Source: Patescibacteria group bacterium (lineage in GTDB: Bacteria > Patescibacteriota > Minisyncoccia > Phycocordibacterales > WO2-35-19). Taken from it: a stretch of 64,000 nucleotides of DNA. The stretch is taken from the NCBI GenBank assembly GCA_038056395.1, contig JBBUFS010000004.1, positions 884 to 64,883 of the forward strand, in the 5' to 3' direction. The translations under genes were made by a program, and so were the position numbers. The notes below the pieces were generated by a model that was not told the DNA's origin, searched no databases, and saw only the letters and a list, made by a program, of their open reading frames with translations. Of the stretch, positions 287-13,151 are shown piece by piece (positions within the stretch are counted from its first letter, which is position 1; every line of letters begins with the position of its first letter).

Positions 287-3200
287 TTATGGCGCCGGTT
301 CAACTATGGGTTCAGGTGTCGGTTCCACTACTGCCGATGGAGTTTCCAACGGAGGCTCGGTAACAGGTACCGGTTCAGGAATTGGTTCAGGAATTATTTC
401 CGGCTTGCCCAGCGAAGCTTCAGCGGAGTTGGGAGTAGTAGTGGCAATCGGCTCTTCTATTATTGGCGGAGTGGTGGAAGCTGCTTGCCCTGAGTCAGTC
501 GAAGGGGTTGGTTCTTCTATTGTTGGAGGCGTTGTGTCTGGAGTGGTGGTAGCGGTGGGAGCAGGAGCGATTCCGGAAGAAGCAATCATGGCCGCCAATT
601 GCTCTTTGTTGACGCAGACATTATCTATGCAAAGCTCTTTGGTCTCCACCTTATCAGCCACCAGACTGCCTGTAATAAGTTTTGTTATCTTGACAAAGCC
701 GTTGCCGATTTCCATTCCGATTTGCTTCAAAAATTCAAACAAACCAAACCACTTGCTTGGCACATCCATGACACTGGCGCCATCCGCAGAAACAAGAGTT
801 TTGGCGCTTTCAACTTCTCTCCAGCCGCTTTTTATATAAGCCATAACCGTCTCTTCGGTATAAGAAGTGGAGGAAGCCGTATCTGATTCAGGAGTATAAA
901 AAGCGGTAGAAGTGGCTCCGCCCACCGCCACCCCGACAATATATCCGCTCTCTATCATTTTGACCGCCACGCCCGGCGTAGTGGAAGAAAGAGCTAGATA
1001 ATCGCCAATTTCAATGGCCCCATTTTCATTTGAAATTTTAACCGGCACCTGCCCGGCGATAGAAACCAAAACATTGTATTGGTTATAATTTTGGTCGCAG
1101 TCCGCGTCATTCACGAAACAAATCGGCCCGTTGCCTATAAAGCCGGGATTGGTGGAAACGATACCAAGGGGCTCCGCTTCCCAAGGTGGCACCTTTGGGG
1201 CATTTCCTAAGGTGCCACCTTGGGAAACAGACCCAGCCCTGACTACACTTTTATCTTTCGTCCTATCAAGCGCCACAATTTCTCCAAACTTCGGCTTATT
1301 ATTCAAATCAGAAATTCTAAAATATTCAGCCATGTCGGCGGCAGAGGTGGTGAAAGCGACCACGCTGGCGCCATTGCCTTGTATTTTGCCTCCTACCGTC
1401 TGGGTGCCATCGGCAAAGGCCACGAAATAGTTGCCGGTGGTTCGGCTGGCATTGGCCACGCCGAGAGTAATCAGCAAGCCGTCGGCATCAGCGCCGGTGT
1501 TGGCATTGTCTATGCGAGCGATATAAGTAGACGCTTGGTTGCCTTGAACTGTAAAGTCGTAAGCCAAAGTGGAGGTGCCTATACCGACGGCGCTATTGGT
1601 GGAATCAACCACAAAGGCAGCGGCGCCCAGTCCGTCATAAAGATTGAGGGCGGTGGTGCTTGAAAGATTCATCCAAAGCCCGCCCTCCGCCGTAAAGCCT
1701 GACAAAAATGTCCCGCCCGAAGAATACATGTTCAAAAGATTGGCCGTCTGGCCGGTGGCCGCCGTTATGTCAACTCCGGCGTTTGTGCTTCCTGCCGTAG
1801 TATCTACTTCAAAGACCGGCGTGCCGCTGGCCATTTGGATTGAAAAAGCGGTGCTTGAAGAAATTTTTTGAGTGAAGCCTCCCCATTGGCTGATAGTAAT
1901 TATATTTCCGCTGATGGAACTGCTGGCGATAGTGAGCAAATCTTTAGCCGTTCCCGCCCCTTGCAAAGAAAAGAGAGCGCCGGGCGCCGCTGTGCCTATG
2001 CCCACATTATTGCTGGAAAAATCATAAACAAATCCTGAACCTTCAATGGCTAAGCCTCCGGCGATGGTGGAAGTGGCGATGGTGGAAGTGGCATTAAAAT
2101 TGCCAAATGTCGGAGTGCTTGTAGCGACGATAGCGCCGGAGGCGTTGGTTGAAAGAAGTGAATTAACAGCCGCGCCAGTGAGAGTGAGAGACGGAGTTGA
2201 AATTGAAGAAGTGGCAATCAAGTTTGCCATCGTTACTGTGCCTCCGTCAAAATATCCGCTTCCGGCCACAGACATTTTATAACCGGGTGTGGTGGAGCCA
2301 ATGCCGAGGTTACCGGCAGAATTGAGAGCCAGCAATGTGGTGGAAGCCGAGTTCACAATATTCAATAAATCTTGAGCGGTTGAGGACGCCCAAATAGTTA
2401 GCCGCGCGTATGGCGTGCTTGTGCCTATGGCGATACCCTCATTTTTGGTGTCCCCGCTTCCGTCTGATTCGCTGTAAAGAGTGAGCAGGGGCAAGCCGTC
2501 AATTGAGGCGGAATAACTTTCAATAGTGCCGGCAGAAGCGGAAGATGTGACCGGCATATCAGCCCAAGAAACTATGCCCGCATCGGAATCAAAACTCTGC
2601 GCTCCCAAGACCAAATTATCAATGGCGGTTTCTCCGGTACTCCAATCATAAGTGATTGCCCCATTGCCCACATCCAATCCGCCAACAATAGTTGTCGTCG
2701 CCGTGCTTGTGCTCATCCAAATATCTCCTAAATGATTGACTCTGAAAAATGTGTTGGTGCTGGAGCCAATAATAAAACTATCCATACCCGCTCCTGCATG
2801 AACTGATAAAGTAGCGTAAGGAGAAGATGTCGCTCCTATTCCAACATTTCCCGTCGCGCCAATAATAGTCAGAGCAGAAGTTGTCGTCGTCGCCGTTCCA
2901 TCAACCGTCGTCGTGGCAAAATACAAATTACCTCCGGCGTTTCTTGTTATCCATTGAGCGATGCCCGCCCCGTCAGTGAGTGATGTTGATGAAGCGACGG
3001 TTAATCGTGCAATTGATGACATTGTGGTAGTGCCGATGCCGACGTTACCCTGACTATTAATACGCATCCTTTCAACCGGGTCTTCTCCTCCTCTGTTCCA
3101 AAATATAAGAGCTGTGACAGTATCACTTGTTCTTATGGCCCTAATACCTGCAAGATTATATGCAGAAGAATTACCCAGTGAAATACCAGCCCCGTCGCTA

Positions 3201-6200
3201 CTATTAGACCTTACTAATAATTGAGATCTGGCATCGCCTTGTGCTGTACCATAAGCACCAAATATCTCGGCCGCAGCTCCACTTTGCACACTAGGTGTGC
3301 CAACTAAGAAAGTACCATTTACGTGTAGTTTCTGCAACGGATTCGCCGTCCCTATCCCCACATTTCCCCCATTAGTCACGACGAAAGAAGTGTTGTGGGC
3401 GATGATGCCGCCGAATTCAATAGGGTCATCATTCCACTCATGTTCAAACTCCATAGATCTAAGATCATTATTGTATTTTTTAAGAAGTTTTTGTTCTTCT
3501 TCAAGAGAAAGAATTTTGCCGCTCTTTTTATATTTCAAATGCCCCGCCACGAAGTTGTGCGTGCCTTCCACTTCTATATCGTAGACCTGTTTTTCCTCCA
3601 GCTTTTCTATTTTCTTTATCTTTTCAAAATTCAAATTATTTTCCAGGGACTGCAGTTTGCCCTCATCATGATTTATTGTTTGCGTCTCTATAACAGCAAT
3701 CTCCTGCCCCTCTTTCAAATCGGAGGTTTTTACCCAAGAATCCTTAATTTGCGGAGAATTTCTCTCAATCCTAATTCCAACTTTATTCAGAGCCCATTTT
3801 AGGATTGATTTCTTATCCACATTGGAATCTGTTGAAACGCTTGACAAACCAAACAGGTTCGCTATACTTGGGACACATTCTCCCCTGCCTCGTTCCGTTT
3901 TCGGAGCGGGGTATGGTTTTTTATAGGAGTTCTTATCGCCAATAATTTTCTGGAAAAGCCCTTCAATCGTCCAGCCGAGACGGGAAAGCAATATATATTT
4001 GTGGGCCAAAGAAGTCAGTGCGCCGGAGAGATTTTCCCTTCCGGCAATTATCACCACTTTTTTACCCAAAGCGTTAAGATCTTTTATAAGCGGAGCAAAG
4101 TCGCCATCGCCAGAAAATAAAACTAGAGTATTAAAATCTTCCGCCAACCGAAGCGCGTCTGTAGCTATTTCTACATCAAAATTAGCTTTCGGCTCCAGAA
4201 GCTCAATACCTTGATCATCAAGACGCTTGGCTTCTGATAGTATTGAATTCCTGATTTTTTCTCCACAGGCCTTCAGCCATCTTGAATTTTGATCATTGTC
4301 CAAAAGGTCAGACAAAGAAATCTTAAAATACTGGACTGGTTTAGTGATAATTGAATATCCCGCTTTTTTGAGAAAATTAAAGAATGAGGGTTGATTTAGA
4401 TTTCGTTCATCTGTTCCATAATAGAAGCGGGTATCATATATGCCTATTTTTTTAAGAGTCCTAATCAATATTTCGAGATTCATAGTTAAACCTCTCTTAA
4501 CAAGCCATGATTTTATATTTGCGTAATCAATAAATGCCATAGCTCCGGACTTTGGCCTGCCTATTTTTTCTCTTACTAAATACGGATGAGTGCCCGTAGT
4601 TTCAATGTATCTGCCCGACTCAGTGGTCAATCTGTAAACGGTACGAACGCCCGTATCCAAAAGGCCGTTTATTATATGATATTCAAATTGGCCGGTTTTC
4701 TGATTCAAAGAAAGCACTTCATCTCCAGGCAAGATGTCTTTGATCGGAACAAACAAACTTTCGTATTCATCTGTTTCAAATTCTTCTCCGTCAGAATCGG
4801 TGTATTTTTTCCTGCGTCTTCTGCGAATTTTTAATAGGGTATCTCCCGTCACGCATTGAGTGGTTGAACCGATGGCAAATGCCGGACCGAGAATGCCCGT
4901 GGGATTTATTGACAACTGAGCCCAAGGCGATGAACTTGCAATCCCCACATTTCCCGTCGCGCCAATTATTGTTAATGCCGAAGTTGTCGTCGTTGCTTCT
5001 CCTGTAATTGTCGTAGTGGCAAAATACAGATTTCCTCCAGCGTTTCTTGTTATCCACTGAGCCACTCCCGCTCCATCAGTGAGAGATGTTGATGAAGCCA
5101 CAGTCAGACGATATTGAGGAGTGGTTGTCCCGATGCCGATTTGACCAGAGGAATCAATCAGCATTCTTGTGGCGATTGCGCCACCGGTTGGTTTGGTCTG
5201 AAACGCAAGCGCGCCCGCGTCATCAGCTCCAGCCCGAGCGCTAGCTATGCTGGCTACACGATTCGTCTGATGGTAAAAATCAATTAGAGCAAAACTTGTG
5301 TTGGTGGTTCTGCTTCCCTGCAGTTCCAGTGAAGAAAGGACATTCTCCGAAGCTCCAGCGGAAATAGTTAAGGATTTATTTACACCAGTGGTCAAACCAG
5401 GACTTTCCGTCCCCACCCCCACATTACCCACCGAGTTAATTATAAAGTATGTAGATGTAGCGGAAGCTCCAGTTGAACTTGCCACAACGAAGAGAGGAAC
5501 AACAGATGCTCCATCGGAGTATGAGGAGACAGAGAGTTTGGCCAGAGGAGAAGTGGTGCCAATGCCTAGGTTACCGTTAAAGACGAAGCCGTCTGTGTCA
5601 GTCAGTCCGTTGCCACCGGAGTTAGTGTGTATTATTCGATTAGCTGTAAATCCAGTTTGATCTGTGTCTGTTAAGGCGAGGAATGTTGAGACTCCTGATC
5701 CCCCACCAACGCAATTATTATTAATAGCAAAACATCCTGCGCTTAAGTTGATGCCGACATTTGATGTAGTGGTGGCTGTTGCGGATATATCAAGACCGGC
5801 TAAAGTGGTAGTGCCAAATCCTTCGGTTGAAACGGAGAGGAGAGATTTGGTTGAAGAGCCAACAGCAAAACCCCAAATATCTCCGGCTTGAGTTTCAATA
5901 CCCAATCGAGCAAACGGGGTGGTGGTGCCAACCCCTGTTTTGCCTTGATTAGTCACAACAAAACTGGTGTTGTGAGCGACGATGCCGTTGGCCACGAAGT
6001 TGTGGGTATTTTCAATTTCAATATCGTAAACTTTTTCCTCTGGCATAATTTCAATCTTTGAAATAACATCCCAAACAGATCTTTTATTGCCGGATACGGC
6101 TATTTTTTGGCCTTCCTTTAGACCCTTCACCTTTGTCCACACCCCACCGCTTGACAAAGATGGCGGCTTGGAATAGAGTGTATCCAATAACGCAACCCCA

Positions 6201-9200
6201 AGCCCTGTGCTTGGGGCTTGTTTTTTATCTGCGCCATTTGCCGTATTTTGATACAAGTTTAGGTCATTTTGGTAGTCATCTATGTTTATATGCAGTATCT
6301 GTCTCAACTCCCAAGCCATATTATTTTCAAACCCGGCAAAAGCTATTTTCTTCCCTTTGTTTATGGAATATTTCTTAAGCGGCAAAAGATCGCTGTCTCC
6401 GCTTACTACAAGTATTGCATCGAGATTTTTTGCGGTTTCTGTAACATCAAGAGTAAGTTCTACATCCATATCTCCCTTCTTTTCCATCACCTCTGCCATC
6501 TTTCCATTTATTTCCTTATTAGTTTTTATGTATTTAAGAGGTTTGGTAATTAAATTAACATACGGCTCAACAAAACTTATGTATTTCAATGTCTTCTCTC
6601 TGGACTCATCGCCTTCTTTCGGTATAGCTGTGTAGAAATTTATAAACTGCAAATCAAAAAACTTGGAAAGTTCTTTCTTCAATTTTGCAAAATCAATTTT
6701 CCAGCCCGCTTTTTTCTGAGCATAGAACATATTTGAGTTGTCATAAAATACTCCAAGTTTTGGCTTGACTGGAAGTTTTTCTGGTTTGGTTTGGGTGAAG
6801 TACGGATGCTCGCTTGTCGTCCTGATGGACTTGCCGGAGGCGGTGGTCAGTTTATAAATTTCTTTTTTGCCTGTGTAAACTACTTGCTTGACTTTGCTCC
6901 AGACAAGTTTGCCTGTTTTGGTATCAAGTGATTGAACTTCATCGCCTTCTTCTATGTCTAATATGGTTGGGTTGTCATAAACATACTCCGTATCCAAATC
7001 CGAAGCACTAAATCCGAAATCCGAAAGTTTGGAATTTGGATCATTTGGATTTGGAATTTGTTTAGAATTTCGAGTTTTGAATTTCGAATTTCTTCGACGC
7101 CTTCGTCGAAGTCTAGTGTCTCCCGTCACGCACTGCGTTGTTGAACCTATGGCAAATGCCGGACCGAGAATGCCCGTGGGATTTATTGACAACTGAGCCC
7201 AAGGTGATGAGCTTGCAATTCCCACATTTCCCGTCGCGCCAATTATTGAAAGCGCTTCTATTGAACTCGTCGCTGTTCCGTCAACCGTGGTAGTGGCAAA
7301 ATACAAATTCCCTCCTGCGTTTCTTGTCACCCATTGAGCTACTCCTGCTCCGTCAGTGAGTGCTGTGCTTGATGCGACAGTTAGACGGTATTGAGGTGTG
7401 GTGGTGCCGATGCCGACGTTGCCAGAAGATGTGATTCGCATTCGTTCAACTTGGTTGGTTACAAAACCCAAGACGTTCGCTGCCGGTGAAAATAATCCGG
7501 TACCAGTGCCTAAGATAGCTAAAGCTGGCACGTTCGCTACGCCACCACTGGTTATGAAGAATTTATTACTAACACCGATGTAGTCCGACGAGGAGCGGTT
7601 GAGATAATCGCCACTTGTACCGATATAAAGGTTAGTTACAACGCGGGCGCTGCCATTAACTTCCAAAGGATAGATAGGACTCGCCGTCCTGATGCCGACA
7701 TTGCCATTAGCCAAAACGGTGAAGAGAGTTGAGGTGGCGGTGCCGCCGGTGGTTGAGGCGATGGTGAAGAGAGGCGTGTTGATGGCGGTGTTGAGATTGT
7801 TTGAAATTGAAAGCAGAGAATATGGTGATGTCGTCCCAATACCGACATTGCCGCTTTGCGCAATGAAGAGAGAGGATGTAGCTGTCAAAGTTGTGCCGAC
7901 GGAATCATAAAATGGAACTTGGCCTTGCAAAGTAGAAGCGCCGACCGAACCAGCTCCGGTGCCCGCGCATATGCCGTTGATTGCGAAACATCCGGCTGAA
8001 AGATTGATGCCTACATTTGATGTGCTTGTGGCTTGACCGATAATATCCAAACCGCGAATTGTGGTTGTTCCAAATCCCCCGCCTGCGATTTCTAGAGCAG
8101 AGATGGTAGTAGTGGCTTCTCCGGTGATTGTTGTGGTGGCGAAATATAAATTCCCTCCGGCGTTCCTAAATGTCCATTGGCCAATGCCTGCTCCGGCTGA
8201 AAGCGAAAGTTGAGGCGAGGTGGAGGAAGATACCGTCAGTTGATAACTGGCGGCAGTGGTAGTGCCGATGAGTATTTGCGAAGTAGTGGCGGACAAACCA
8301 AGTAAGGGATGAGTCCAAGCGTCGTAGGAAGAGAGAGGAGTAAATCCGAATATGGAAGATGAGGCGGCTACATTGAGCGTTCCATCATTTCCGGCCGTGT
8401 AGACGAAACCGTTGGCGGTCAAATTTGAAAGTTTAGGAATACTGGCCGAACCTTCCACGGTAAGATTGCCGCCAAGGTAAGTGTTGTGAGCGATGATGTC
8501 GTTCCCCACGAAGTTGTGAGTGCCTTCCACTTCAATGTCATAGACTTTTTCAGCTGGCAGACGCTTGATCTCAATTACTTTTTCCCAAGCGGCTCTCTCC
8601 CCGTGAATAACAGCTACAGATTCGCCGACTCGCAGATCCCCCGCCACTCTCCACACGCCATCCTTGACAAGATTTTCAGATTTGCTATACTTGCTCTCAA
8701 GAAGCGCTCGTGAGCCAACCAGACTCTCGTCTTTGTGCGAGAAAACAGTAGCTCTAAGGGCGTTTTCTGTTTGGGCCAAAAGCGCGGTCGCGTCTGCTCC
8801 GACTTTTTCATCCGCTTTTTTCTTGCCAATATGAACGCCCCAGGCCGCAAAGTGAGCCGGCGACTTTTTGCCGATTGGAGCGAAATGTATTTCAATATCG
8901 GCAAATTGATTTTTGATGATAGAAGCAATAATTTTATCATGACCGATATACTCGGTATCAATAACAAGCTCGTGAACTGTAGATTTGAGCTTCAACAAAG
9001 CTTCTTTTATGCCGATAGCAAACAAAATCGCATAAAGTTTGCCTGATTTTTTAAATCTTTTCTTGAAATTTTGTTTTATCTCGCGCGGTATTACGACCGA
9101 GATTGAGTTTTCTTGATTTGCCACTGATATGACGGTATCATGATTGAAGTTTTCAATCTTTACTGATTGATCCGCTTCAAATTTGTAAAGCTTTTGGTTC

Positions 9201-11314
9201 GTTTTTAGAGGATATTTTGTGCGGACAAAATACGGATGAACAGCGGTAGTGCGTATGCTTTTGCCGGTAATAGTAGTAATCTTGTATAAATCCTTGATTC
9301 CCATATCCATCAAAGCGTTCACTCGCGACCAAATCAGCTTGCCTGTAATCTGGTCCATTGATTGAATCTCGTCTCCCGGCTCCACATCTTTGATCATCAC
9401 TTCATCATAAATGTATGCCCCTTTGCGTCTTCTCCTTCTCCTTAGTTTTGTGTCTGCCGTCACACAATGCGTCCCGACCGCAAATCCTCCGGCCGGACTT
9501 GTGGTTGCCACCCCCACCAATCCGTTTGCTGTAATAGTCAGAGCAGCCAGGGTAGAAGTGGCTGTGCCGTCAATAGTGGTGGTGGCGAAGTATAGATTAC
9601 CGCCTGCATTCCTCATTGTCCATTGAGCCACACCCGCTCCGGCGGAAAGCGAGAGTTGAGGAGCGGTGGAGGAGGCGACAGTGAGCAAATATTGAGGAGT
9701 GGTAGTGCCAAGACCGAGATTTTTAGAATTATTGTCCCAGACAAAATTACTATCAAATGAGAGATTGCCGCCGTTTGTCCAAAAAGCAGCCCTGTTTGCC
9801 GCGCCACTACCGGTCAGGCCGGCGCCCAGACCGAGGCAGGTGCCATCCATAGCGAAACAACCGTCAGAAATATCAAATCCTCCGGCTGATGTGGTAGTGC
9901 CGGTGCCATTGATAGCTAAATTGCCGCTAAAAGTAGAGGTGGCCGTGGAGGTGCCGGTAAAGTAGGCGCCAACAATTTGTCCCGCCACCGAAAGACTGGC
10001 GTATGGAGAAGTGGTGCCTATACCAAAATTAGTGCCGTCAAAAACAAAACCATCAGTATCGGTCAGGGCAGTGCCAAGCGCATTAGTGTGAATAATCCTG
10101 TTTGCTGTAAAAGCTGATGGCGTATCAGTGAGGGCCAGATAAGTGGAAGCTCCGGAACTGCTTGAGCTGCTAGAAGAACTAGAAGAACTGCCGGCTCTGC
10201 CAACAATTACATCATTTTGTCTGGATATATAATATCTGTTTACATTCGGCGCCAGAGGCGAAATCAAAAACCAATTTTTTAATTCTGCAATTTTAAAATC
10301 TACATATTCTTTGTCAGAGCCAGCCACAAAAACCGTTTTAGCTATTCTTCCTTCTTCTTCTGTTGTAAGAGAGGGTTGGAGTGAGTTATTTGAAATATTA
10401 TTTTCAACAATAATAGTTCCTCCATCTTTCAAAAACCAGGGCCTCACTATTTTATAAGCAGTATCTTTCATCCATCCAGAAATAGATTGCCATCCATCGA
10501 CAGAAAACAAAGAAGAAGCAAGTTGATTACTGCTTTGGTTTACATTTGAAATATTCTCTTTAAATTTTGAAAAATCATTTTGAAATTTATTTATATAAGG
10601 ACTATACAAAAAAGATATTTCTTCCTTGACTTGACCTCCAAAATGAGTTGGGATTGGATTTTTGAAATTTTCTTTACCAAAAATAAAGACTCCTGTAAGC
10701 AATAAAACAAGGGTAATAACGCTGGTATTTATAACAAACTTATCAAAGCTAGACCTCTTTGGGGACCTTTTTATCGCTTCCTCAACACCACTCAGAGCAA
10801 TGTATCTTGCCGTCCTTATATCAAATTTTTTTTCTAAAACCGGAAATAATTCTTTATCATCCTTATAATACAAGGGTTTTATCTCTCCGACATCTCGGGT
10901 ACTCGAGATACGCGATTTTACCTTTTTTTCCGTCAGTAATTCCCTTGGTAAAAAGGAGTCCTCCGAAACCATATTGTCGTCAAATACAGCAACTTTTTCC
11001 CACTTACTTTTTTCTTTATTTTTATCTTTTTCTTCTTCTAGATTTTCAACCTGATTCTCTGATTTTATCTCTAGACCATTTTTTTTTAGCCGGCGAGTTT
11101 TGAGAGTTTTCTTATGGGTTAGTAGATTTTTATTTTTATGATCCAAAATTTCATTTTCCAAAACATACCAGCTTCTACCAACCAAACTAGCAGTGATTTT
11201 TTTTGCTCTGCAAAGTTGTCCGATATAATCACTGGCATAACCAGTGATGTCAGCAGCTCGGCTTGCCGAGATGTATTTTTTACCTTTCAAATAAAGAGAC
11301 TTATTCACACACAT
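287..11314 (-). CDS. Giant (3675 aa precursor, about 2471 aa after splicing) membrane-anchored surface repeat protein interrupted by three inteins. It has an N-terminal HTH_17/excisionase-like segment, one TM helix, long Gly/Thr/Ser-rich beta-repeats (NVGIGTTxP...L.V.G; tail-fibre / Chlorovirus-glycoprotein-like) and a Pro/Thr/Glu-rich C-terminal tail
   Basis: Single uninterrupted ORF. TM segment FVINTSVITLVLLLTGVFIFG. Repeated modules GNVGIGTTTPQYRLTVASSTSLTDGAGVAQWITRNAGGNLYFATTT recur at least 5 times. Three Hint domains carry all intein blocks. C-terminus is ...TPEPIVEPAP. Confidence 0.8.
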   Translation of the reverse strand: MCVNKSLYLKGKKYISASRAADITGYASDYIGQLCRAKKITASLVGRSWYVLENEILDHKNKNLLTHKKTLKTRRLKKNGLEIKSENQVENLEEEKDKNKEKSKWEKVAVFDDNMVSEDSFLPRELLTEKKVKSRISSTRDVGEIKPLYYKDDKELFPVLEKKFDIRTARYIALSGVEEAIKRSPKRSSFDKFVINTSVITLVLLLTGVFIFGKENFKNPIPTHFGGQVKEEISFLYSPYINKFQNDFSKFKENISNVNQSSNQLASSLFSVDGWQSISGWMKDTAYKIVRPWFLKDGGTIIVENNISNNSLQPSLTTEEEGRIAKTVFVAGSDKEYVDFKIAELKNWFLISPLAPNVNRYYISRQNDVIVGRAGSSSSSSSSSSSSGASTYLALTDTPSAFTANRIIHTNALGTALTDTDGFVFDGTNFGIGTTSPYASLSVAGQIVGAYFTGTSTATSTFSGNLAINGTGTTTSAGGFDISDGCFAMDGTCLGLGAGLTGSGAANRAAFWTNGGNLSFDSNFVWDNNSKNLGLGTTTPQYLLTVASSTAPQLSLSAGAGVAQWTMRNAGGNLYFATTTIDGTATSTLAALTITANGLVGVATTSPAGGFAVGTHCVTADTKLRRRRRRKGAYIYDEVMIKDVEPGDEIQSMDQITGKLIWSRVNALMDMGIKDLYKITTITGKSIRTTAVHPYFVRTKYPLKTNQKLYKFEADQSVKIENFNHDTVISVANQENSISVVIPREIKQNFKKRFKKSGKLYAILFAIGIKEALLKLKSTVHELVIDTEYIGHDKIIASIIKNQFADIEIHFAPIGKKSPAHFAAWGVHIGKKKADEKVGADATALLAQTENALRATVFSHKDESLVGSRALLESKYSKSENLVKDGVWRVAGDLRVGESVAVIHGERAAWEKVIEIKRLPAEKVYDIEVEGTHNFVGNDIIAHNTYLGGNLTVEGSASIPKLSNLTANGFVYTAGNDGTLNVAASSSIFGFTPLSSYDAWTHPLLGLSATTSQILIGTTTAASYQLTVSSSTSPQLSLSAGAGIGQWTFRNAGGNLYFATTTITGEATTTISALEIAGGGFGTTTIRGLDIIGQATSTSNVGINLSAGCFAINGICAGTGAGSVGASTLQGQVPFYDSVGTTLTATSSLFIAQSGNVGIGTTSPYSLLSISNNLNTAINTPLFTIASTTGGTATSTLFTVLANGNVGIRTASPIYPLEVNGSARVVTNLYIGTSGDYLNRSSSDYIGVSNKFFITSGGVANVPALAILGTGTGLFSPAANVLGFVTNQVERMRITSSGNVGIGTTTPQYRLTVASSTALTDGAGVAQWVTRNAGGNLYFATTTVDGTATSSIEALSIIGATGNVGIASSSPWAQLSINPTGILGPAFAIGSTTQCVTGDTRLRRRRRRNSKFKTRNSKQIPNPNDPNSKLSDFGFSASDLDTEYVYDNPTILDIEEGDEVQSLDTKTGKLVWSKVKQVVYTGKKEIYKLTTASGKSIRTTSEHPYFTQTKPEKLPVKPKLGVFYDNSNMFYAQKKAGWKIDFAKLKKELSKFFDLQFINFYTAIPKEGDESREKTLKYISFVEPYVNLITKPLKYIKTNKEINGKMAEVMEKKGDMDVELTLDVTETAKNLDAILVVSGDSDLLPLKKYSINKGKKIAFAGFENNMAWELRQILHINIDDYQNDLNLYQNTANGADKKQAPSTGLGVALLDTLYSKPPSLSSGGVWTKVKGLKEGQKIAVSGNKRSVWDVISKIEIMPEEKVYDIEIENTHNFVANGIVAHNTSFVVTNQGKTGVGTTTPFARLGIETQAGDIWGFAVGSSTKSLLSVSTEGFGTTTLAGLDISATATTTSNVGINLSAGCFAINNNCVGGGSGVSTFLALTDTDQTGFTANRIIHTNSGGNGLTDTDGFVFNGNLGIGTTSPLAKLSVSSYSDGASVVPLFVVASSTGASATSTYFIINSVGNVGVGTESPGLTTGVNKSLTISAGASENVLSSLELQGSRTTNTSFALIDFYHQTNRVASIASARAGADDAGALAFQTKPTGGAIATRMLIDSSGQIGIGTTTPQYRLTVASSTSLTDGAGVAQWITRNAGGNLYFATTTITGEATTTTSALTIIGATGNVGIASSSPWAQLSINPTGILGPAFAIGSTTQCVTGDTLLKIRRRRRKKYTDSDGEEFETDEYESLFVPIKDILPGDEVLSLNQKTGQFEYHIINGLLDTGVRTVYRLTTESGRYIETTGTHPYLVREKIGRPKSGAMAFIDYANIKSWLVKRGLTMNLEILIRTLKKIGIYDTRFYYGTDERNLNQPSFFNFLKKAGYSIITKPVQYFKISLSDLLDNDQNSRWLKACGEKIRNSILSEAKRLDDQGIELLEPKANFDVEIATDALRLAEDFNTLVLFSGDGDFAPLIKDLNALGKKVVIIAGRENLSGALTSLAHKYILLSRLGWTIEGLFQKIIGDKNSYKKPYPAPKTERGRGECVPSIANLFGLSSVSTDSNVDKKSILKWALNKVGIRIERNSPQIKDSWVKTSDLKEGQEIAVIETQTINHDEGKLQSLENNLNFEKIKKIEKLEEKQVYDIEVEGTHNFVAGHLKYKKSGKILSLEEEQKLLKKYNNDLRSMEFEHEWNDDPIEFGGIIAHNTSFVVTNGGNVGIGTANPLQKLHVNGTFLVGTPSVQSGAAAEIFGAYGTAQGDARSQLLVRSNSSDGAGISLGNSSAYNLAGIRAIRTSDTVTALIFWNRGGEDPVERMRINSQGNVGIGTTTMSSIARLTVASSTSLTDGAGIAQWITRNAGGNLYFATTTVDGTATTTTSALTIIGATGNVGIGATSSPYATLSVHAGAGMDSFIIGSSTNTFFRVNHLGDIWMSTSTATTTIVGGLDVGNGAITYDWSTGETAIDNLVLGAQSFDSDAGIVSWADMPVTSSASAGTIESYSASIDGLPLLTLYSESDGSGDTKNEGIAIGTSTPYARLTIWASSTAQDLLNIVNSASTTLLALNSAGNLGIGSTTPGYKMSVAGSGYFDGGTVTMANLIATSSISTPSLTLTGAAVNSLLSTNASGAIVATSTPTFGNFNATSTIATSTIAGGLAIEGSGFVYDFSSNNVGIGTAAPGALFSLQGAGTAKDLLTIASSSISGNIITISQWGGFTQKISSSTAFSIQMASGTPVFEVDTTAGSTNAGVDITAATGQTANLLNMYSSGGTFLSGFTAEGGLWMNLSSTTALNLYDGLGAAAFVVDSTNSAVGIGTSTLAYDFTVQGNQASTYIARIDNANTGADADGLLITLGVANASRTTGNYFVAFADGTQTVGGKIQGNGASVVAFTTSAADMAEYFRISDLNNKPKFGEIVALDRTKDKSVVRAGSVSQGGTLGNAPKVPPWEAEPLGIVSTNPGFIGNGPICFVNDADCDQNYNQYNVLVSIAGQVPVKISNENGAIEIGDYLALSSTTPGVAVKMIESGYIVGVAVGGATSTAFYTPESDTASSTSYTEETVMAYIKSGWREVESAKTLVSADGASVMDVPSKWFGLFEFLKQIGMEIGNGFVKITKLITGSLVADKVETKELCIDNVCVNKEQLAAMIASSGIAPAPTATTTPDTTPPTIEEPTPSTDSGQAASTTPPIIEEPIATTTPNSAEASLGKPEIIPEPIPEPVPVTEPPLETPSAVVEPTPEPIVEPAP
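3392..4855 (-). mobile_element. Intein 3 (488 aa); CVTGDTLL...TTGTHPYL...VYDIEVEGTHNFVAG-(40 aa insert)-GGIIAHN | T(+1); contains an NYN/LabA-like nuclease domain
   Basis: Terminal Asn codon at 3394-3392 (frame-consistent). Cys1 codon maps to about 4855-4852; my by-eye indexing here is uncertain by +/-1 nt. Exteins ...AIGSTTQ | TSFVVTNGGNVGIG; same insertion site as intein 2. Confidence 0.75.
3956..4546 (-). other. NYN/LabA-like nuclease domain inside intein 3
   Basis: AMAFIDYANIKSW (FIDxxN), ANFDVEIATDALRLAED, LVLFSGDGDFAPLIKDLNALGKKVVIIAG. All three acidic motifs are conserved. Confidence 0.6.
5969..7132 (-). mobile_element. Intein 2 (388 aa); CVTGDTRL...TTSEHPYF...VYDIEIENTHNFVANGIVAHN | T(+1); contains an NYN/LabA-like nuclease domain
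   Basis: Cys1 codon at 7132-7130, terminal Asn codon at 5971-5969; both frame-consistent with the host ORF. Flanking exteins are ...AIGSTTQ | TSFVVTNQGKTGVGTTTP. Confidence 0.8.
6278..6769 (-). other. NYN/LabA-like (PIN-fold) nuclease domain inside intein 2
   Basis: The three NYN signature motifs appear in order: LGVFYDNSNM (FxDxxN), GDMDVELTLDV (acidic D-x-D/E), ILVVSGDSDLLPLKK (SGDSDxxPL) followed by GKKIAFAG. Pattern match by eye to PF01936-type proteins. Confidence 0.55.
8483..9466 (-). mobile_element. Intein 1 (328 aa), residues 617-944 of the precursor; Cys1 = CVTADT, block B TTAVHPYF, block F/G VYDIEVEGTHNFVGNDIIAHN | T(+1); carries a roughly 170-aa insert of unknown type
   Basis: Codons mapped by reverse-complementing the sequence: tgt(Cys1) at 9466-9464, aac(terminal Asn) at 8485-8483, followed by act (Thr+1). 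In frame with the host ORF. No LAGLIDADG or HNH motifs seen in the insert. Confidence 0.8.
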
Positions 11315-12497: not shown

Positions 12498-13151
12498 ATG
12501 AGATACGAAAATTTTGCGGAGAATGAGCACTATCATATATTTGGCAGAGGAATTAATAAAGAAAAAATATTTATTGATGAACAAGATCGAATAAGATTTA
12601 TATTTTTAATCACCCATTTCCAATCCCCTATCAAAATATATAACATATCTTGGTACACTAAGGCCTTTATTAAAAGCGGTTCTTTTAATTTTAGTGCCAA
12701 AAAGAGCGGAACAGAAGAAATACTTAAAAAAAGAAATGTTGAGCTAGTGGCTTTTGCTTTAATGCCAAATCATTTTCATATTTTGATTAAAAATTTAGAG
12801 GATCGTATCCTCTCTGTCTATATGCACCGAATCCTGACCGCTTACAGCAAATATTTTAATGCCAAGTATAATAAAAAAGGTCATGTTTTTGAAGGACCCT
12901 TCGGGGCAGTGTTGGTTGAAAATAATAATCAACTTTTGCACCTATCCGCCTATATCCACAAGAACCCAAAGGAAATTAAGGAGTGGACGAACAATTATGA
13001 TAAATATCCATATTCAAGCTATCAAGATTACATTGGTTCAAACAGATGGGGAGACCTTCTTGTCACTGATATAATCTTAAAACAATTCAAAGACTGGGTT
13101 AAATATAAGGATTTTGTTTCCACTAGTGTGGCTAAAGAGCCCTTATTTTAA
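12498..13151 (+). CDS. IS200/IS605-family Y1 (HUH) transposase / REP-associated tyrosine transposase (RayT-like)
   Basis: YHIFGRGINKEKIFIDEQDRIRF (N-terminal motif), ALMPNHFHILI (HUH motif), GHVFEGPFGAVLVENNNQLLHLSAYIHKNPKE (catalytic Tyr region, YIHxNP). The 3' end overlaps the gatB stop by 9 nt. Confidence 0.65.
   Translation: MRYENFAENEHYHIFGRGINKEKIFIDEQDRIRFIFLITHFQSPIKIYNISWYTKAFIKSGSFNFSAKKSGTEEILKKRNVELVAFALMPNHFHILIKNLEDRILSVYMHRILTAYSKYFNAKYNKKGHVFEGPFGAVLVENNNQLLHLSAYIHKNPKEIKEWTNNYDKYPYSSYQDYIGSNRWGDLLVTDIILKQFKDWVKYKDFVSTSVAKEPLF

Follow-up and report, generated by a model that had tools for sequence, protein, structure and literature searches.

NYN/LabA-type nuclease domains at the homing-endonuclease position of inteins in a giant repeat protein of a Patescibacteria group bacterium

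The LAGLIDADG inteins PI-SceI, PI-PfuI and PI-PkoII and the HNH inteins share an architecture in which a class-1 HINT domain holds a nuclease between block B and block F; they use a conserved host motif as their site, and several of them may occupy one gene. To our knowledge, the nucleases carried by inteins have so far been essentially of these two kinds. We found the same architecture, choice of site and multiplicity in a 64,000-nucleotide stretch of DNA (hereafter the window; positions 884 to 64,883 of contig JBBUFS010000004.1, assembly GCA_038056395.1) from a Patescibacteria group bacterium sampled in a 0.1-µm metagenome of Hainich groundwater. One open reading frame (ORF; 287..11314, minus strand, as are all features of this gene given below) encodes a giant repeat protein of 3675 aa in a single frame with three in-frame inteins. 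Unlike LAGLIDADG and HNH inteins, inteins 2 and 3 carry a domain of the NYN/PIN fold, and there is an Arg-rich tract and a loop after block A. The hosts of such inteins are mostly non-essential repeat surface proteins and not replication or repair enzymes, and DNA cleavage is a property that we infer here.

Two other groups of described proteins are relevant. LabA-like NYN proteins (PF01936/COG1432; VPA0982, structure 2QIP) and MARF1 (5YAA) are free-standing or fused to OST-HTH or RRM domains, and are RNases or uncharacterised; the domains described here differ from them in being nested in an intein, in a distinctive tail helix and in their behaviour as a shuffled cassette. Homing endonucleases may be encoded by genes of their own, by introns or inteins, or in frame within host genes, for example as LAGLIDADG ORFs in fungal mitochondrial rps3. 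The NYN module likewise appears in three guises (free-standing, intein-nested and in frame in leucyl-tRNA synthetase, LeuRS) and as decayed remnants; it differs in belonging to another fold family and in that no intron-borne copies were found, and its mobility is deduced from its distribution.

The NYN module of intein 2 (6143..6778, intein residues 119-330) and that of intein 3 (3821..4555) are both recognised by the Pfam NYN model PF01936 far above its gathering cut-off of 24.2 bits: intein 2 with 60.9 bits (E 2.6e-16, residues 125-278, core at nt 6299-6760) and intein 3 with 72.4 bits (E 7.3e-20, residues 108-289, core at nt 3989-4534). NCBIfam adds weak TIGR00288 NYN matches on the inteins, and both inteins match the LabA-like structure 2QIP by sequence (intein 3 at 8e-5). 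These results bear out the original prediction, made from the DNA letters, that NYN/LabA domains occupy the homing-endonuclease position of inteins 2 and 3. The motifs it had quoted are all where it placed them, namely VFYDNSN (128-134), DMDVELTLD (221-229) and LVVSGDSDLLPL (241-252) in intein 2, and AFIDYANI (107-114), NFDVEIATD (225-233) and LVLFSGDGDFAPL (244-256) in intein 3, and its residue ranges were correct; the interval that it gave, 3956-6769, runs from residue 300 of intein 3 to residue 122 of intein 2 and thus includes the extein between them.

C-terminal of the NYN core, intein 2 has a conserved tail helix, GVALLDTLYSKPPSLSS. The intein 3 module has a tail ending in ...IANLFGLSSVS and a helical insert of about 45 aa, at a place comparable to the helical arch of T5 5'-exonuclease, FEN1 and ExoIX and unrelated to it; there is no significant sequence relationship to those enzymes, and their helical arch and H3TH parts are absent here. 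Because the two modules are only 30% identical and because of this insert, inteins 2 and 3 carry two different NYN subtypes.

In the predicted structure of intein 2, a PIN-like alpha/beta domain of the NYN/LabA fold lies between two HINT-fold halves, both of which superpose on mini-inteins. The closest folds to the nested domain are LabA (2qip) and the NYN RNase of MARF1 (5YAA), and the predicted structure had no LAGLIDADG or HNH structural neighbour. With block B before it and block F after it, the insert occupies the place that PMC6801210 defines as the conserved site of endonuclease insertion in inteins. A degenerate LAGLIDADG or HNH domain in the inserts, the outcome against which the original prediction had asked for a structural check, was rejected by profile searches and by comparison of predicted folds.

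The putative active site consists of D131 (6740-6742), N134, D223 (6464-6466), E225, D246 (6395-6397) and D248 (6389-6391) in intein 2 and of D110, N113, D227, E229, D250 and D252 in intein 3. An alignment of 31 sequences shows D223 and D246 without exception, and conservation of 90% or more for D131, N134 and D248. We also aligned 184 relatives to a hidden Markov model of the NYN module, among them 54 nested copies, some of which are partial: every nested copy covering those columns has the pattern D-N-D-(E/D/x)-D-D, and no complete one is without a catalytic Asp. Judged by this conservation, the active site of the nested NYN domain is under selection. The earlier wording that the domains of inteins 2 and 3 are "probably catalytically active" is reasonable, because the acidic residues are conserved in both inteins, as had been claimed, and in every scorable nested relative.

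We delimited the inteins by a Cys-block A start and an end at His-Asn followed by Ser, Thr or Cys (an arrow marks the splice junction below). Intein 1 has 328 aa (aa 617-944, nt 8483-9466; site ...GGFAVGTH↓...↓TYLGGNLT), intein 2 has 388 aa (aa 1395-1782, nt 5969-7132; site ...AFAIGSTTQ↓...↓TSFVVTNQ) and intein 3 has 488 aa (aa 2154-2641, nt 3392-4855), the last at the same site as intein 2 in a paralogous repeat. Block A reads CVTADT in intein 1 and CVTGDT in inteins 2 and 3, and the block B TxxH motif is TAVH, TSEH and TGTH, respectively. Block F, VYDIE(V/I)E.THNF, is present (VYDIEIENTHNF in intein 2, VYDIEVEGTHNF in intein 3), and all three inteins end in AHN followed by Thr+1. All three pass the cut-off of the Pfam model Intein_splicing (PF14890), inteins 2 and 3 pass that of the NCBIfam model TIGR01445 (intein_Nterm), TIGR01443 (intein_Cterm) also passes, and inteins 2 and 3 match DnaB mini-inteins by sequence. 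The HINT halves of the three are mutually 42-60% identical, and intein 1 is a sister of inteins 2 and 3 (HINT halves 49-60% identical). By their motifs, inteins 1-3 are complete class-1 inteins (Cys1, TxxH, His-Asn↓Thr+1); the 11-kb host ORF is uninterrupted across all three inserts, and that inteins 2 and 3 are splicing-competent is the best explanation of what we see. The spliced host product would measure 2471 aa.

With these signatures in view, the proposal that the elements are not true inteins, being instead bacterial intein-like (BIL) or pretoxin-HINT autoprocessing domains that cleave a surface protein or release a nuclease toxin, is very improbable: the variable, surface-type host is a classic setting for BIL domains and polymorphic toxins and there are weak PT-HINT scores (21.1-24.6 bits), but these lie under the cut-off of 27.7, the full catalytic set of an intein with its +1 nucleophile is present in all three and passes PF14890 and the TIGR intein N- and C-terminal models, the NYN domain is nested inside HINT with more than 1000 aa of extein after it and is not C-terminal, and the same intein type sits in the P-loop of an SMC protein.

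The insertion points recur in a conserved setting. Removal of intein 2 would leave the junction TTTGCCATAGGTTCAACAACGCAG, followed by ACCAGTTTTGTTGTGACTAATCAA, and removal of intein 3 would leave TTTGCCATCGGTTCAACCACTCAA, followed by ACTTCTTTCGTCGTGACTAATGGG. The upstream flanks of the two sites are 92-93% identical at the nucleotide level in the last 120 nt and 77% identical over 330 nt; the rise in identity close to the insertion point is consistent with a common target or with a co-conversion tract. In relatives, insertion is always at ...G(Q/H)↓T(Y/A/S)(L/I/F), after a GIGTTxP...LHV.G repeat. After block A, a run of five to six Arg/Lys residues, CVTGDTxLRRRR(R/K), is kept in nearly all relatives (9425-9442 in intein 1; 7091-7108 in intein 2, where it is Arg6; 4811-4825 in intein 3) and is followed by a variable loop of low confidence in the predicted structure (intein 2 residues 15-48). 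The Arg tract might bind nucleic acid. Intein 3 has a further insertion of 43 aa, GHLKYKKSGKILSLEEEQKLLKKYNNDLRSMEFEHEWNDDPIE (3416-3544), between block F (THNFVAG) and block G (GGIIAHN); the place is unusual, and one relative (P0052) has a longer insert at the same point.

Database searches with inteins 2 and 3 returned dozens of proteins in which an NYN domain is nested in HINT. Intein_splicing is detected in 24 of 37 long representatives, and at 18 of the 30 loci taken from species-representative genomes the NYN domain lies between CVTGDT and AHN↓T. The hosts comprise giant repeat proteins of the Candidate Phyla Radiation (CPR), Fib_succ-domain proteins (P0053 and P0054), proteins labelled Bathyarchaeia or Pacearchaeota, and an SMC ATPase; related hosts have Peptidase_S74, Ig-like or Gly-rich domains. 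In the SMC protein (P0079), the intein splits the Walker-A loop (GPNGSGK↓CVTGDT...ILHN↓SNVAEG), and Pfam detects SMC_N, NYN (76 bits) and Intein_splicing in the one protein. The P-loop is a classic intein site. Going by their domains, the hosts of NYN inteins are unrelated and do not form one family.

Comparison of close relatives points to exchange of the nested module. P0053 and P0054 are alleles of one host, with exteins 95-97% identical and HINT halves 75-76% identical, whereas their NYN modules are of different subtypes and share 22% identity. A third intein (P0007) combines the N-terminal HINT half of P0054 (92%) with the C-terminal half of P0053 (98%) around a third NYN subtype, and a fourth (P0006) has the N-terminal half of P0007 (94%) with an NYN module of the intein 2 type. 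In P0001, an intein 2-type module (71%) is found at the site that is occupied here by intein 1, whose insert is of another kind. Read from these identities, the inteins are mosaic, and HINT-N, nested nuclease and HINT-C have separate histories.

The nested domain of intein 1 (8822..9184) matches no Pfam family. Its predicted fold is RNase H-like, with the motifs FEADQS, VIDTEYIGH and GKKSPAH, and resembles RNase HII. A sister intein (P0060) has a nested Zn-ribbon and a PD-(D/E)xK-like domain (GHIDIV...LLDYKP). From sequence and predicted structure, the common feature of the inserts at this site is nuclease chemistry.

The NYN module is also found outside inteins. Complete free-standing genes of about 180-215 aa among ordinary neighbours are present at nine genome loci; for some sequences the free-standing state was judged by length. 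The closest free-standing homologues are 54-62% identical to nested copies, and the two share the tail helix (K-K-x-P...LLxxLYxxxxxLSS). Nested and free copies interleave on a tree, with about 19 switches among nested, free and other contexts, a number that is only indicative since the tree is a crude neighbour-joining one on identity distances and some of the sequences counted as free may be fragments. The neighbourhoods of the free-standing genes have no common partner.

Three LeuRS genes of Microgenomates-type bacteria (L023, P0012/L019 and P0014) contain an in-frame NYN module of the intein 2 type. In the complete example, L023 (gene 3519-6770, insert at about 4914-5561), an insert of 216 aa follows the CxxC knuckle, at a point where the uninterrupted enzyme reads CEAC↓G(V/W)xP(V/I)PEEELP. 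Residues 5-465 of this LeuRS align with residues 1-443 of the Thermus thermophilus enzyme and residues 682-754 with 444-517, so that zero host residues are lost, and the insert is without HINT blocks. The P0012 copy has lost a catalytic Asp (SGDSH), the sole such loss seen among the relatives.

Several observations on relatives are recorded here in their own right. A free-standing homologue of the P0060 insert (L028 1715-2779; PDDEXK_1 23.2 bits, cut-off 22) sits about 600 bp upstream of a free-standing NYN gene (L028 3350-3955). The insert of the P0017 intein has a weak DUF3800 match, and in L021 the free-standing NYN gene has a DUF3800-like gene immediately upstream of it. Two free-standing NYN genes are near the gene for the PEP synthase PpsA, a proximity that probably reflects synteny or chance: in L024, labelled as a Saccharibacteria genome, PpsA (1103-4729) has a conventional LAGLIDADG-type intein (LAGVIDGDGTF) and the NYN gene lies about 1.2 kb downstream, and in L027 the NYN gene is directly upstream of an intein-less PpsA. 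Decayed copies include a 131-aa ORF consisting of the first 25 residues and the tail of the module (L031 1397-1789), and a C-terminal NYN fragment (L026 7092-7442) beside a full-length free-standing NYN gene, between two giant surface-protein genes.

The host protein itself has an N-terminal cytoplasmic segment, one predicted transmembrane helix, long Gly/Thr/Ala-rich repeats (GIGTTxP / RNAGGNLYFATTT) and a Pro/Thr/Glu-rich C-terminal tail; a run of 13 Ser is also present in the extein. A Pfam search of the protein ends matched no family. The RNAGGNLYFATTT module occurs five times; an intein lies within the next 40-50 aa for three of the five and none for the other two. Downstream of intein 3 there is a diverged, intein-free paralogous repeat (FIIGSSTN↓TFFRVNH). 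Misassembly of the gene through its long repeats is possible in principle, although the reading frame is unbroken from end to end and the flanks of the repeats differ from one another. The inteins have a GC content of 39-43%, the exteins of 50% and the genome background of about 38-40%; we rejected a foreign origin of the inteins on this ground, since the difference reflects exteins that are rich in Gly, Ala and Thr and not transfer. Elsewhere the window holds ordinary bacterial genes such as GatB and SecA, and the great majority of its relatives are Patescibacteria/CPR. An IS200-like Y1 transposase gene (12498-13151, plus strand; PF01797, E 1e-10) lies about 1.2 kb from where the giant gene starts, and the interval 10-14 kb is the GC minimum of the window (31-32%).

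We propose that the NYN domain is a nuclease cassette and that it works as an intein homing endonuclease of a new kind, a reading to which we give a rough probability of 55%. An active, metal-dependent nuclease of the NYN/LabA type (PIN fold) would fill the canonical endonuclease site in place of LAGLIDADG or HNH. The NYN core with its short tail helix would be a self-contained cassette, also existing as a free-standing gene of about 200 aa, that may have moved repeatedly into the endonuclease site of a CPR/DPANN intein family and at least once directly, in frame, into a host gene (LeuRS). Once released by splicing, the intein would nick or cut DNA wherever a copy of the conserved host motif is still empty, and repair templated by an occupied copy would carry it to other alleles and to paralogous repeats within a gene. 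Homing of this kind would explain why one ORF holds three inteins and why two different ones occupy identical sites. We infer homing because one family is free-standing, nested and directly inserted, because conserved motifs are occupied in unrelated hosts, because the module is replaced between alleles and because multiple paralogous sites are filled. A selfish mobile nuclease, as opposed to a domesticated function, is what the comparative data favour, given the unrelated hosts, the module swapping and the free-standing and LeuRS-inserted copies. We hold more tentatively, at somewhat less than an even chance, a stronger form, in which NYN modules are a new DNA homing endonuclease family and, with the RNase H-like and PD-(D/E)xK-like inserts, make up an interchangeable CPR/DPANN pool that also invades conserved genes in frame and unspliced, as in LeuRS.

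Several points weigh against homing. All characterised enzymes of the NYN family that we know of (MARF1, Regnase-1, Rae1/YacP and PRORP) are RNases. It is not obvious how a monomeric PIN-fold site would act as a double-strand DNA cutter. For none of the NYN-intein sites was an intein-less orthologous allele found. A scan with the spliced P0053 sequence recovered 79 metagenome loci, and the empty P0053/P0054 site was absent among them; they either carry the intein or have no more than the C-terminal Fib_succ domain in common with the query. One locus considered as a junction-bridging empty allele (L066) was rejected as a frameshifted intein copy; the frameshift lies in block A of a P0054-type intein, at about 1364-1940. 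What is seen is allele replacement by another NYN subtype at the orthologous site, and diverged empty paralogous repeats within the host protein. The active site is kept universally, in contrast to LAGLIDADG inteins, where decay is frequent, and this could point to a benefit for the host. Viral and rRNA/intron contexts are places in which homing endonuclease genes usually abound. The intein 2-type NYN was not found in IMG/VR viral contigs, and no rRNA/intron context was found for the free-standing NYN genes or the LeuRS insert, for which Rfam gave only two tRNAs. NYN is not mentioned in the survey of CPR rRNA insertions (PMC11270868), and the 2017 survey of the PIN superfamily lists LabA-like NYN proteins as of "function unknown" with RNA-processing neighbourhoods. 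Many of the relatives are partial proteins from short contigs, and the labels Gammaproteobacteria and Thermoplasmata on some metagenome-assembled genomes are probably binning errors.

A rival explanation is that the nested NYN domain is an RNase, like the characterised NYN enzymes named above, and that the freed intein acts on RNA, for example as a regulator, as a toxin or addiction factor by which loss of the intein is made difficult, or in the processing of tRNA, rRNA or mRNA, with the intein spreading or persisting without DNA homing. The nearest folds, LabA and the MARF1 RNase, agree with this, as does an active site that is kept in 100% of the nested copies that could be scored, which suggests continuing selection and not a homing cycle with decay. 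LeuRS, the host of the bare module, is an RNA-handling enzyme; the insert of intein 1 is similar to RNase HII; and the free-standing homologues resemble other small genes of the cell, with neighbourhoods that vary. There is also a weak match to a generic NYN defence model of PADLOC. An RNA-directed role leaves unexplained why NYN subtypes, RNase H-like and PD-(D/E)xK-like domains are interchangeable at one site of near-identical inteins, and why the hosts (surface repeat proteins, an SMC P-loop, Fib_succ proteins and LeuRS) are functionally unconnected; moreover, the PIN-fold relatives T5 exonuclease and FEN cut DNA. We regard this explanation as unlikely, though as the most serious of the alternatives. 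Membership in a defence system was rejected separately: PADLOC gave only generic NYN and HEC-09 matches, and the PHROGs matches were weak and to families of unknown function.

It is improbable that the NYN domain has ceased to act as a nuclease in mobility and merely stabilises the HINT sub-domains, and that the inteins are fixed, vertically inherited passengers of a fast-recombining repeat family. Some inteins do require a nested domain or a long linker for splicing (PMC6801210), the metagenome scan gave no empty orthologous site, and recombination-prone host genes rich in repeats could alone yield mosaics. However, a structural role does not account for five catalytic residues that are invariant across subtypes just 22-30% identical, nor for the same module as a free-standing gene and as a LeuRS insert.

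The remark that such an architecture was not known to be described still holds, as no published account was found in open-access full texts and bioRxiv. No paper linking NYN, LabA or PIN domains with inteins was found in that literature, an absence that is not proof, and the PIN-superfamily survey of 2017, a comprehensive classification, never mentions inteins, Hint or homing. Public databases already contain the NYN-in-intein architecture under the automatic name "NYN domain-containing protein". The novelty that we claim is the class of nuclease nested in the intein; that it is a new homing-endonuclease family is the stronger claim. If true, this would extend the homing endonucleases by a family from a superfamily that is associated mainly with the cleavage of RNA, and site-specific action on DNA would be predicted for NYN domains. 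Most of the many LabA-like NYN proteins have no assigned function, and the intein context offers a testable substrate, the intein-less junction. Compact new site-specific nucleases would be of practical interest as well.

At this locus and among its relatives, nested nucleases are swapped between nearly identical inteins, and the same cassette is found in an essential gene without a splicing element. Both the swapping and the LeuRS insertion are relevant to the ways in which endonucleases enter inteins and are exchanged among them, and to the biology of mobile elements in the little-studied CPR and DPANN lineages. If the proposed reading is true, insertion of the LeuRS type would represent the spread of a selfish gene that needs neither an intron nor an intein.

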